Part shown: piece after piece, positions 18,229 to 21,474 of the stretch | Layout: each line of letters opens with the position of its first letter | Position numbering within the stretch: position 1 is the stretch's first letter | From: Nanobdellota archaeon | GTDB lineage: Archaea; Nanobdellota; Nanobdellia; Pacearchaeales; GW2011-AR1 | Length of the DNA: 64,000 nt | Direction: 5' to 3' | Assembly (NCBI GenBank): GCA_038045825.1 | Contig: JBBSXJ010000003.1 | Coordinates: 148 to 64,147, forward strand | Program-made: the position numbers and the translations under genes | The notes under the pieces: generated by a model | Databases searched by the model: none | What the model saw: the letters and a program-made list of their open reading frames with translations, nothing else | Told to the model about the DNA's origin: nothing

Positions 18229-19071
18229 TTAATTAAGTACAAACTCAGGTTTGGCCATTAAGTCTTTGGAATTTATGAATTCGTATACTCCTATGAACTT
18301 TTCATCTGAATAAACCACTACTTTTTCTCCTTTCTGTATTTTTTCACTTACTGGCTCTGATAAAAATGATTTAAATATTGGGGAACCAGTATATAATTTT
18401 TTTATAACATCTTTTCTTATTTTTATTGTAAGAAACATTTGATTTAATATTTCTCCTGAAATCAATACTTTTCTCAATGGTTCTTCATTACCTTTTTTGT
18501 ATTCTTTTATTATCTTATCAAATTCATACATTGTTATTGCAGTGCTTTCATCAAAGATGCCCGCTTTTGTTCTTCTTAGTTCAAGCATATGTGCACCACC
18601 TATTTTTTCTCCTAAATCACTGCAGAGTTTTCTAATGTATGTGCCTGCCTGAACTTGAGCCACAAATAAAAAATCTTTCTCTTTTTGCTCTAATATTTCA
18701 AATTTTTTTACTTCTCTTTCTCTGACTGCACGTTTTACACTTGATCTTACTGGGGGGAGTTGGTTTATTTTACCTATAAATTTTTCTGCTTCTTTTTGCA
18801 GGTCTTCTTTAGATATTTCTCTATGGACTCTGATTATGCCAACATAAGTTTTATCTTTGTTCATCAAATAAGGATTTAATCTGCAAGCCCTGTTTAATGC
18901 TACTGGTAAAACTCCTGAAACTTGCGGATCTAATGTTCCTAAATGGGAAGTTTTACTTAGTTTTAAAGATTTTTTTATATATTGAGAAACTGTGAAACTT
19001 GTAGGACCACTTGGTTTGTCTATGTTTATTATTCCAAACTGCAGTAATTCCTTGATTGACTTTTGATTCAT
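18229..19071 (-). CDS. truB: RNA pseudouridine synthase TruB/Cbf5
   Basis: IDKPSGPTS, HLGTLDP (catalytic Asp), GTYIRKL; PUA-like C-terminus. Confidence 0.92.
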   Translation of the reverse strand: MNQKSIKELLQFGIINIDKPSGPTSFTVSQYIKKSLKLSKTSHLGTLDPQVSGVLPVALNRACRLNPYLMNKDKTYVGIIRVHREISKEDLQKEAEKFIGKINQLPPVRSSVKRAVREREVKKFEILEQKEKDFLFVAQVQAGTYIRKLCSDLGEKIGGAHMLELRRTKAGIFDESTAITMYEFDKIIKEYKKGNEEPLRKVLISGEILNQMFLTIKIRKDVIKKLYTGSPIFKSFLSEPVSEKIQKGEKVVVYSDEKFIGVYEFINSKDLMAKPEFVLN

Positions 19072-19189
19072 GTTGTTGTAAAATTACTGCTGGTTTTAAG
19101 CCTTAAGGTTCTAACTGTTTTGAAGTTATCACAAGGGTATTAAATACCCTATTCTAATGTTTTTCATGAATAAAATGAAAGGAGGTATT

Positions 19190-20257
19190 ATGAAAAACAC
19201 AAATATAGTACTAACAGTTTTCCTTATAGCTACACTTTTAGTTTCTGCAATTGCAGGAGCAGTAGAAGTAGGAGATATAATTAGTGCGGATCCTAATGTT
19301 ATAAGTGCTGCATCAGTTGCTGCCTCAATAAGCGCTGTTGATGCCGTAGAAACAGAAATTGAAGTTGAAAATGAAGTTGAATTTAAGACTACAACAAAAA
19401 ATACAGTTTCTAAAGGACAAGGATGGATAGTAACTGAAAGCAAAGGTGCTTTAGCGGAAATCCTCTTTGTAAGCAAGGAAGGAACAACAGCTGATGGAAC
19501 TGCAACTAGTATTTCTAAAGGATGGTTTAGAGCTGGAAATATAAATCTTAAGCTTGAATCAACTGCAAATACTGAAACTACAAAGACTTTCCAAGTAACT
19601 GGAGGAGACGGTTCTGTAAAAGGAACATTGACTCTTACAAAAGGTCAGACTTACCAGACAGGTTTTGCTGTATGGAATGGGGATCTTGATATAATGGTTG
19701 GAGATAAACCGTTTGATGCAAAGGTTACTTTAGCAATTGAAGAGAAGAATAATAGAAAAGATCCTAATAGTGGTCGCGGAGGCTCTGGAAGTTCAACAGC
19801 TTCTGGAACATTAGTTCTTGGAGGCGAAAGCTTTACTCTTGAAGGAAAGACAAGTAGTGCCAAGAAACTCGAATTTAGAGTTATTGGATCAGATGGCGCT
19901 GTTGGAGAGTTAAATCTAGAAAGCAGAGATTCTGTAAATTATGCTGGGAAAATAGAAATTGAAGGAAAAGCCGGAAATGAAATCAAAGGAAAGGCAACTG
20001 CTCAATTGAAACGTGAAGTAAATACTTTATACGGACCTATAAAGATTGAGTTAGATGGTTCCTCTGCTGCAGACTTGGCTTTTATGGATGGAACTATCAA
20101 GATAGCATTAAGTGAAAAAGTTGCATCTGATAGCCCAGGAGAAAAAGACAAAGATGTTAACTCTGACTTAAGAAATGATGAGGATACAAGAGGAAGCAAT
20201 TCTGATTCTTCAGATAGAGGATTCTGGAAAAGATTCTTCAGCTTTTTCGGCAACTAA
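19190..20257 (+). CDS. Secreted beta-rich hypothetical protein
   Basis: GGAGGT SD at 19181-19186; signal peptide MKNTNIVLTVFLIATLLVSAIAGA. Confidence 0.75.
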   Translation: MKNTNIVLTVFLIATLLVSAIAGAVEVGDIISADPNVISAASVAASISAVDAVETEIEVENEVEFKTTTKNTVSKGQGWIVTESKGALAEILFVSKEGTTADGTATSISKGWFRAGNINLKLESTANTETTKTFQVTGGDGSVKGTLTLTKGQTYQTGFAVWNGDLDIMVGDKPFDAKVTLAIEEKNNRKDPNSGRGGSGSSTASGTLVLGGESFTLEGKTSSAKKLEFRVIGSDGAVGELNLESRDSVNYAGKIEIEGKAGNEIKGKATAQLKREVNTLYGPIKIELDGSSAADLAFMDGTIKIALSEKVASDSPGEKDKDVNSDLRNDEDTRGSNSDSSDRGFWKRFFSFFGN

Positions 20258-20295
20258 TCTTTATTTTTTTTATTTTTTATTTTTAGATTTTTTGG
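20258..20295 (+). terminator. T-rich archaeal terminator
   Basis: Successive oligo-T tracts after the stop codon. Confidence 0.5.
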
Positions 20296-20339
20296 AAGAG
20301 GTTAGAACTGCACTAATTTAGATTTTATCCCAGAGAACA

Positions 20340-20447
20340 TCAATTATATCTTTTTTGACTTTTTCCTTTTTTTGCTTTGAGCCAAGCATTATGGAGGTTT
20401 TCTAAAGAAAAAATAGAACTGTATAGATTGTTGTAAGTTATACTCAT
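20340..20447 (-). pseudogene. 5' stub of DGR reverse transcriptase (35 codons)
   Basis: MSITYNNLYSSIFSLENLHNAWLKAKKGKSQKRYN* matches the typical DGR-RT N-terminus (TYxNLYxxIxSxENLxxAxxKAxKGK); starts 23 nt after the TR. Confidence 0.75.
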
Positions 20448-20469
20448 TTTGAGTCTTGGTTGCCAAAGC

Positions 20470-20563
20470 TATTCCAAAAGAGTATCTGTTGTCGTTGAAC
20501 TCGTTCCAGTTGTTGCCGTTAAGGTTCAATCTGTCATCGTTCTCGTTCAAATCAGGAACTCTT
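20470..20563 (-). repeat. DGR template repeat (TR)
   Basis: 94 bp, 9 AAC codons; 71/94 identical to the VR, with 17 of 23 mismatches at TR adenines (hand alignment). Confidence 0.9.
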
Positions 20564-20778
20564 CATTAGCCACTTACTTGAAATTAAACCACCACAATTT
20601 CAGGTTTCGCTTTTTGCGCAATTGCTACTTGCTGTTATTGTTGAATATTATTGGCAAGTGACGTGTAGCCTCGGCAAGTGCTTTTAGCACTCCAAGACAG
20701 AATAATTAGAATTTATTGATTAAAAATGTTTCTTAAAAAAGTTCGCTATTTGTCTAAAAAGTTTTTTTGCGCGCGTTC

Positions 20779-20790
20779 GCACTGATGTGC
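20779..20790 (-). promoter_or_regulatory. Hairpin just downstream of the VR (candidate DGR cis element)
   Basis: GCAC-ATCA-GTGC a few nt after the target stop codon, followed by a GC-rich GAACGCGCGC. Confidence 0.45.
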
Positions 20791-20793
20791 TCA

Positions 20794-21474
20794 CTACTGA
20801 CGTACCCCAAAAGAGTGCCCGTTGACGTCCAAGTCGAACCAGTCGTAGCCGTTGAGGCCCAAACTGCTGACGTACTCGCTCAAATCAGGAACTCTTATTT
20901 GATTGTCTGTTCCCTTGCCTAAAGCCCAAATGTATCCCCTCTTACCTATTTGACCTTGAATTTGAGCTAGTTTCTTTCCTGCTTCTATGTCTCCAGTTAA
21001 AGCAATTGTAAAAGGATTTGCTTCAATTTGCTTTGCATCTTGCCAACCTGTTTCAAAACTATAAGGCAATGCTCTTATTGTTTCATCATTACTGAATCTT
21101 ACGCCATTTTTTGCATTTTTGCTTAATTTTGAGGTTAAACTCTTTTCATCCATTACTATTCTTCCATTTTCAACTTGAGGCATGTCTTGAACAATAACCA
21201 TATTTGGAACGTAAAGAATAGCTGTATTTCCAGATAAGTAGAATTTTCTTGAAGCTTGAACAACTTTATCTGCTCCTGTAATGCCTTGATTAAAATATGA
21301 TTGATGGGCTAAGTCTAGAACTTCTCTAAGGGTTGCTTGTCTAAAACCTTGTCCATAGTCTGCTTGTTTTAATTTATGAAAACTACCTGGACCAACTGGT
21401 GAATCTGCATACACTCTTCCAGCTGTTTCTATAGTTCCACCTGGAGGATTGTGCTTGAAGATTGATTTTTCCAT
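20794..21474 (-). CDS. DGR target (variable) protein, probable CLec-like fold
   Basis: C-terminal RVPDLSEYVSSLGLNGYDWFDLDVNGHSFGV is encoded by the VR. Confidence 0.85.
   Translation of the reverse strand: MEKSIFKHNPPGGTIETAGRVYADSPVGPGSFHKLKQADYGQGFRQATLREVLDLAHQSYFNQGITGADKVVQASRKFYLSGNTAILYVPNMVIVQDMPQVENGRIVMDEKSLTSKLSKNAKNGVRFSNDETIRALPYSFETGWQDAKQIEANPFTIALTGDIEAGKKLAQIQGQIGKRGYIWALGKGTDNQIRVPDLSEYVSSLGLNGYDWFDLDVNGHSFGVRQ
20803..20896 (-). repeat. DGR variable repeat (VR)
   Basis: Gap-free match to TR 20470-20563 at the 3' end of the target gene; locally GC-rich. Confidence 0.9.

Follow-up and report, generated by a model that had tools for sequence, protein, structure and literature searches.

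Results

The target gene, VR and TR

The window analysed here, a stretch of 64,000 nucleotides with a G+C content of about 33%, lies on contig C3 of a groundwater archaeon's genome (G000) of 836,590 bp in 16 contigs that is estimated to be 89.6% complete. It carries a DGR locus near which the archaeal markers Hjc and Cbf5 are encoded. All DGR parts are on the minus strand, in the order target gene with VR, IMH, hairpin, putative promoter, RT-16, TR with IMH*, and RT stub. The RT stub, TR unit, gap elements and mismatches described in an earlier note on this DNA were each present where that note had placed them.

The target gene (20794-21474) is an open frame of 226 aa. Its product had no match in Pfam or NCBIfam and none among PDB sequences in a profile search; a representative library contained 306 homologues at E <= 1e-3. 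Homologues are found in groundwater MAGs of Pacearchaeota, Woesearchaeota and Nanoarchaeota. An AF2 model built with 69 sequences reached a pLDDT of 95.3 (an earlier one from 7 sequences, at 39.7, was useless), and its sole significant PDB fold match in Foldseek was 5IOO_A (E 1.5e-4, probability 1.00, TM 0.53/0.57, 13% identity), which is AvpA, a Nanoarchaeota DGR variable protein with a C-type-lectin fold. On this model the target is predicted to be an AvpA-like variable protein with a C-type-lectin fold and its variable residues on the C-terminal face. In the family alignment A4, for which the target protein was the starting point, four residues are nearly invariant, and the target has all of them. 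The genome also encodes a paralogue outside the window (G000:C1:31483-32190, corresponding to L052:1357-2064, minus strand) of 235 aa, with 33% identity over residues 1-176, whose C-terminus looks VR-like yet which has no TR partner genome-wide.

The VR (core 20807-20896, or 20803-20896 with its 3' IMH edge) encodes the last 31 residues of the target. Its repeat partner (core 20474-20563, or 20470-20563 with the 3' IMH* edge) lies 333 nt downstream, the two forming a direct repeat of 90 nt that is 77% identical. This downstream copy is the TR, because it is AAC-rich and 15 of the 21 mismatches fall at its adenines. The other six are T>C, G>A, T>C, G>C, C>G and T>C, and two further A>G differences in the IMH region, immediately beyond the 3' end of the core, make the adenine share 17/23 when the IMH edge is counted. 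The IMH, TGGGGT (20804-20809), stands at the 3' end of the VR and is invariant in L053, L054 and L055; the IMH*, TGGAAT (20471-20476), stands at the 3' end of the TR inside a clade-wide GGAATAGC box that is kept in 13 of 14 aligned cassettes. Nanoarchaeota DGRs have been reported with this same pair, TGGGGT/TGGAAT (PMC4372165). We consider the VR/TR pair to be far beyond chance, since the TR is the VR's only partner in the whole genome, the VR is C-terminal, target homologues vary exactly where the TR has AAC codons, and the IMH/IMH* pair is in place. No second TR or VR was found in a genome-wide search.

Elements between VR and TR, and the RT-16 leader

The gap between VR and TR measures about 240 nt. 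Three nucleotides after the target stop is the hairpin GCAC-ATCA-GTGC (20779-20790), at the site expected for a DGR target-site hairpin. Its GCAC/GTGC stem is kept in L054 and L055, the two nearest homologous loci whose sequence reaches this far, the loop being different in L055 and carrying a 54-nt insert in L054. Further along are two A/T-rich boxes, AGCGAACTTTTTTAAG and AAACATTTTTAAT (20718-20748), which are conserved in the same two homologues and lie 20-50 nt upstream of RT-16; a TATA-like GAAACATTTTTAAT occupies 20731-20718. The nearer box is centred about 24 nt before the RT-16 5' end, a position like that of an archaeal TATA box, and we regard the boxes as a putative archaeal promoter.

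RT-16 RNA (Rfam RF03019; 20561-20697) forms the 5' leader of the TR and is a full-length match to the model (positions 1-158) at 73.9 bits, against a gathering score of 50. The hairpin AGTGC-TAAAA-GCACT at 20691-20677 is its first stem and no loose element; the TATA-like box and the first hairpin of the earlier note are there as it gave them. Of the core pairs, 19/20 are formed in the window, compared with 17-20 in 14 cassettes of relatives, 7 of them with a full-length RT. Of 20 related DGR loci, 15 have RT-16 (61-98 bits), and so do 23 of 61 related genomes; 22 of these genomes also have an RT, the only exception being G000, where RT-16 adjoins the RT stub alone. Its 3' end falls 0-15 nt from the first TR base in all nine cassettes measured (e.g., L018:3591-3754, L022:1011-1176 and L036:978-1175). 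The motifs RT-1 to RT-19 were described near RT genes with their role unassigned, RT-10 alone being tied to a DGR (Weinberg et al. 2017, PMC5737381), and our literature search found no paper linking RT-16 by name to DGRs or retroelements.

RT-16, the TR, the IMH* and the promoter boxes have no clear decay, and either the loss of the RT was fairly recent or these parts decay slowly.

The RT stub and its junction

The RT frame opens with an ATG at 20447, 27 nt past the TR, and after 35 codons (MSITYNNLYSSIFSLENLHNAWLKAKKGKSQKRYN) reaches a TGA at 20342-20340. This stub (20340-20447) covers the N-terminal helix region only, and the catalytic motifs are absent. In tblastn it matches the first 31-34 residues of 18 RT genes in relatives at 45-62% identity, and a profile of RT N-termini matches it at E 9.5e-12. 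Judged by these matches the 35-codon frame is the true N-terminus of a DGR RT, confirming the earlier reading of a truncated RT. The RT is 339-360 aa long in intact relatives; about 90% of the gene is therefore gone, all catalytic motifs included. Of the features of a functional DGR, the cassette has the VR at the target 3' end with IMH/IMH* and a downstream hairpin, as well as a TR and VR that differ for the most part at TR adenines, and lacks a DGR-clade RT with catalytic motifs.

At the far edge of the deletion is a complete convergent gene on the plus strand (19157-20257) for a secreted or membrane protein of 366 aa. Its stop at 20255-20257 is 82 nt from that of the stub, in agreement with the roughly 80 nt given previously. 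The protein is 58% identical over its full length, C-terminus included, to the product of a 371-aa gene of L015, and the gene was therefore untouched by the deletion. In the L015 genome the target gene has a different position relative to Cbf5 and Hjc than in the window, and the Cbf5 pseudouridine synthase gene there (L015:3589-5940) carries an intein with a LAGLIDADG domain, which the window's Cbf5 (18229-19071, 280 aa) has not.

The junction itself (20258-20339) holds a possible decayed continuation of the RT and the oligo-T terminator region of the convergent gene. A T-rich tract following the convergent stop (20257-20293) matches dozens of contigs of other organisms with 2-5 mismatches and a high summed depth, and is probably a generic archaeal oligo-T terminator. 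We looked for an RT remnant past codon 36 and could not demonstrate one: profile and DNA alignments run on co-linearly through three in-frame stops, the stub's own and two more, with an L-x2-NL pattern, and at -0.3 bits in nhmmer this is not significant. Retention of the stub as a cis-acting RNA element was rejected, as synonymous-codon identity over the first 50 RT codons (0.50-0.52) was no different from that in the rest of the gene (0.44-0.61).

No RT or Avd elsewhere in the genome

A PF00078 search of G000 returned nothing at E <= 1; applied to 61 relatives it recovered an RT in 25, among them 9 of the 16 within the same genus. When 16 RTs from relatives were run against G000 by tblastn, the stub alone was recovered. 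The search for an intact RT or Avd and for further TR copies that the earlier note had proposed was thus negative by PF00078, PF05635, tblastn and repeat search. As the genome is 89.6% complete and relatives' RT loci are often on short contigs, an RT left unbinned is possible. One candidate for such an RT was a 26-kb contig with an RT and a TR-like 34-mer, whose sequence is absent from G000. It was rejected as belonging to the same organism when its depth did not track the genome over four runs (26, 41, 16.5 and 17.7, versus 23, 31.6, about 3-5 and about 2.4).

For Avd the picture is different from that in the earlier note, which had taken it to be lost. PF05635 (Avd-like) is absent from G000 and was found in only 5 of the 61 relatives, compared with the 25 that have an RT; where it was seen with an adjacent RT, in G026 and G049, the RT was of a different type. 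One layout is common to seven cassettes of this RT clade whose RT frames are full or open (L018, L022, L024, L026, L029, L036 and L059), namely target, VR, 325-470 nt, TR, 20-39 nt and RT, with no Avd and with housekeeping genes directly after the RT. Because intact members of the clade also lack Avd, its absence is ancestral and not part of the damage. The VR-TR gap of about 230 nt in the earlier note is close to our measurement, and as a sign of a lost Avd it fails, since intact relatives are spaced alike.

The truncated junction in independent assemblies

The cassette is matched at 100% identity by a Logan unitig of 4,843 nt, which occurs in two runs at depths of 23 and 31.6, and the same identity holds over 4,681 nt for the ENA contig Hain_H41_01um_R3_1197 (32 kb, coverage 27). 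Low-depth pieces from two more runs, of a second study, cover 20208-20358 and 20287-20469 and so span the junction. In the assemblies and contigs that cover the junction we found no joint or loose end leading into RT sequence; loose ends at 20257-20293 belong to the T-rich terminator-like tract common to many organisms. The truncated junction is real and no assembly artefact. MAG, Logan and ENA agree on it, and the reading of decay thereby withstood, at the level of contigs, the assembly collapse that the earlier note had named as its refutation.

Every dataset that covers the VR, namely five runs of two studies (X1, X2, X3, X5 and X6) and the ENA assembly, has it in identical form; these data consist of contigs, which would miss rare alleles. 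The check for VR variation thus favours the frozen branch of the earlier note as far as contigs of six datasets can tell, low-level variation being invisible in them.

Mismatches and decay among relatives

Six of the 21 TR/VR mismatches in the window are at positions other than adenine, compared with 1/100 in seven relatives with an intact RT (Fisher p 9e-5), which bears out the earlier suggestion of drift. The corresponding counts are 4/84 in cassettes with a split RT, 2/40 in other stub cassettes (p 0.016 against the window), and 3/13 (L068) and 6/16 (L081) in two fully RT-less cassettes of relatives. We polarised the six sites with seven outgroup VRs: the VR accounts for three changes (G>A, G>C and C>G) and the TR for two to three (C>T twice, and an A>T where the outgroups are hypervariable). 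Homing would erase differences of this kind, and no homing event can therefore have occurred since they arose. CPR and DPANN DGRs, however, often contain several non-A differences (Wu et al., PMC5758913), and by themselves such mismatches are thus no proof of inactivity. Together, the mismatches and the contig identity of the VR make strong evidence that it is frozen; the evidence is not final, because contigs may hide rare variants and non-A differences are common in these DGRs.

Relatives have lost their RTs to differing extents. In several (L038, L040, L046, L049/L082 and L064) frameshifts have split the RT into two frames, and the TR/VR mismatches are still almost all at A. Other relatives retain orthologues of the target (43-66% identity) whose VR-like ends fit the window's TR, with differences mostly at A sites; neither TR nor RT was found within 6-10 kb of those in L012, L015 and L009/L017 or within about 1.5 kb of those in L042 and L043, and G016, one of these genomes, has no RT at all. 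Decay is recurrent in the lineage, with every stage from intact cassette to lone target represented, and on these comparisons the window holds an intermediate stage.

Two further cassettes, L068 (G026:C4:13325-16535) and L081 (G030:C15:232854-236063), consist of target, VR, RT-16 and TR with no RT within 1.5 kb downstream. Their RT-16 sequences are 79% identical and their downstream genes differ, so the two losses may be independent.

Discussion

The best explanation of the locus is that it is the remnant of an Avd-less DGR, of a type known from DPANN archaea, and we think it likely that the cassette is a dead DGR whose variable-protein gene is frozen yet intact. Between the two readings offered in the earlier note, a frozen DGR and a satellite served in trans, it is the former that our data support best; the latter found no positive support here.

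The history that we propose starts from the layout that relatives still have in full: a target with C-terminal VR, IMH, hairpin, promoter, RT-16, and TR with IMH*, followed after about 27 nt by an RT of about 340 aa. A deletion, as the sequence shows, took everything beyond about codon 35 of the RT, catalytic motifs included, and put the stub beside the terminator of the convergent, housekeeping-type gene. Mutagenic homing would then have stopped because, in a genome without an RT, the TR RNA would no longer be copied into mutagenised cDNA. The VR would have been fixed at its last state, and VR and TR would afterwards have diverged by ordinary point mutation, with some three changes each, while the target gene may have been held under selection as a fixed lectin-like binding protein.

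A rather unlikely alternative is that the cassette is a non-autonomous satellite, its promoter, RT-16 and TR still transcribed, with an RT elsewhere that copies the TR and diversifies the VR; that RT could sit in the 10% of the genome that was not recovered, or a co-resident element could carry it. We keep trans service under consideration because the RNA part looks intact, RT-16 being full-length with 19/20 core pairs, and because RT-poor cassettes of this kind turn up repeatedly in relatives with an RT at another locus. L084 (G037:C2:6311-9493) has RT-16, TR and an RT stub of about 42 codons, with 10/10 mismatches at A and an RT elsewhere in its genome, and L083 (G036:C9:15052-18204) has RT-16, TR, two VRs and an RT stub of about 100 aa, 28/30 of its mismatches being at A, and lies 6.5 kb from an intact DGR. 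These two could be very recent truncations or true satellites. When the RT-16 of such possible satellites was compared with that of the resident cassette, no consistent pattern of resemblance emerged. Work cited in PMC5758913 indicates, moreover, that DGR components can work in trans in the Bordetella system. The window, however, differs from these stub cassettes in its excess of non-A mismatches, no RT was found in G000, and the VR is invariant over six datasets at the level of contigs. The one RT contig that came up as a candidate in these samples differs in abundance profile, and the first 50 RT codons have no excess of synonymous conservation that would explain retention of the stub as an RNA element.

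A broader form of the idea, which we hold to be quite unlikely, is that RT-16 and the TR are self-contained RNA modules that outlive their own RT, as non-autonomous cassettes copied by the RT of another cassette or replicon. Were it true, the window cassette, L083, L084, L068 and L081 would make up a recurrent class of satellite DGRs in Pacearchaeota, in which RT-16 would act as the handle for recruiting a foreign RT and would define the 5' limit of the cDNA.

It should also be considered that the deletion could be one allele in a polymorphic population, in which a minority of cells keep the full RT and still diversify. Contig-level data are blind to rare alleles, and one X5 contig of 230 nt at a depth of 4.7 matches 20597-20718 without a difference and continues below 20597 as unrelated sequence, so that a strain variant and a chimeric unitig are both conceivable. 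The truncated form was nevertheless found in every assembly and contig covering the junction, with no joint or loose end into an RT, and we judge such a polymorphism to be very improbable. That an assembler collapsed or skipped the RT is barely credible: DGR repeats do often break assemblies, and for the closest homologues (L053 to L055) the contig breaks off soon after the VR, but three independent assemblies (MAG, Logan and ENA) are the same at every base over 4.7 kb, and the deletion edge lies outside any repeat.

Taking the cassette as a dead DGR, we see in it a system caught midway in decay, for which relatives supply the remaining stages: from an intact cassette to a split RT, to an RT stub with template RNA as in the window, to no RT, and to the target gene alone. 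This series can be used to ask how targeted hypermutation is turned off and what becomes of a frozen binding protein. Placing RT-16 as a TR-abutting leader in a clade of Avd-less archaeal DGRs also suggests roles for it that can be tested, such as binding of the RT or stopping of cDNA synthesis.

Relation to known systems

RT-less partial DGRs of Nanoarchaeota have been known since 2015, and the locus itself is no new kind of system. What is added here is that the lack of Avd is native, that non-A mismatches rise stepwise with loss of the RT, and that RT-16 abuts the TR as its leader. The precedents are partial, RT-less Nanoarchaeota DGRs in DUSEL4 single-cell genomes (Paul et al. 2015, PMC4372165), which resemble the window in their DPANN host, adenine-mutated VR, cis elements with TGGGGT/TGGAAT, and absence of an RT, and which were given the same pair of interpretations, as fossils or as targets diversified from elsewhere. 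A VR search in that study yielded two partial DGRs made up of target, VR and cis elements and nothing else, and that paper also lists one cassette missing the RT ORF alone. In contrast, the window has kept its TR, the RT-16 leader and a 35-codon RT stub, which show how the RT was lost. Its hairpin is also just after the stop codon, whereas that of PMC4372165 is inside the gene.

Of the Pacearchaeota and Woesearchaeota relatives whose target-TR-RT DGRs are intact, L018 (contig CAZSNJ010000028.1) is a close counterpart, with a target of the same family (37% identity), RT-16 abutting the TR, no Avd, a VR-to-TR spacing of 330 nt against 333 nt in the window, and the same TR-to-RT gap of 27 nt. It differs in that its RT is open for about 135 aa to the contig end and all 19/19 of its mismatches are at A, while the window has a stub and 6/21 mismatches elsewhere. 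The RT-16 motif as published (RF03019, PMC5737381) is like that in the window in being a full-length match above the gathering score beside an RT gene or remnant; it is given no function in that paper, and in the nine cassettes measured here it ends 0-15 nt from the first TR base.

The DGR of Bordetella phage BPP-1 (mtd-avd-TR-brt) shares with the window adenine-specific transfer from TR to VR, IMH and IMH*, a hairpin after the VR, and a target with a C-type-lectin fold. Unlike BPP-1, the window has no Avd and no RT, and the RT stub starts just 27 nt beyond the TR. Structured RNA is likewise differently placed, being 5' of the TR in the window and in the TR-RT spacer in BPP-1.
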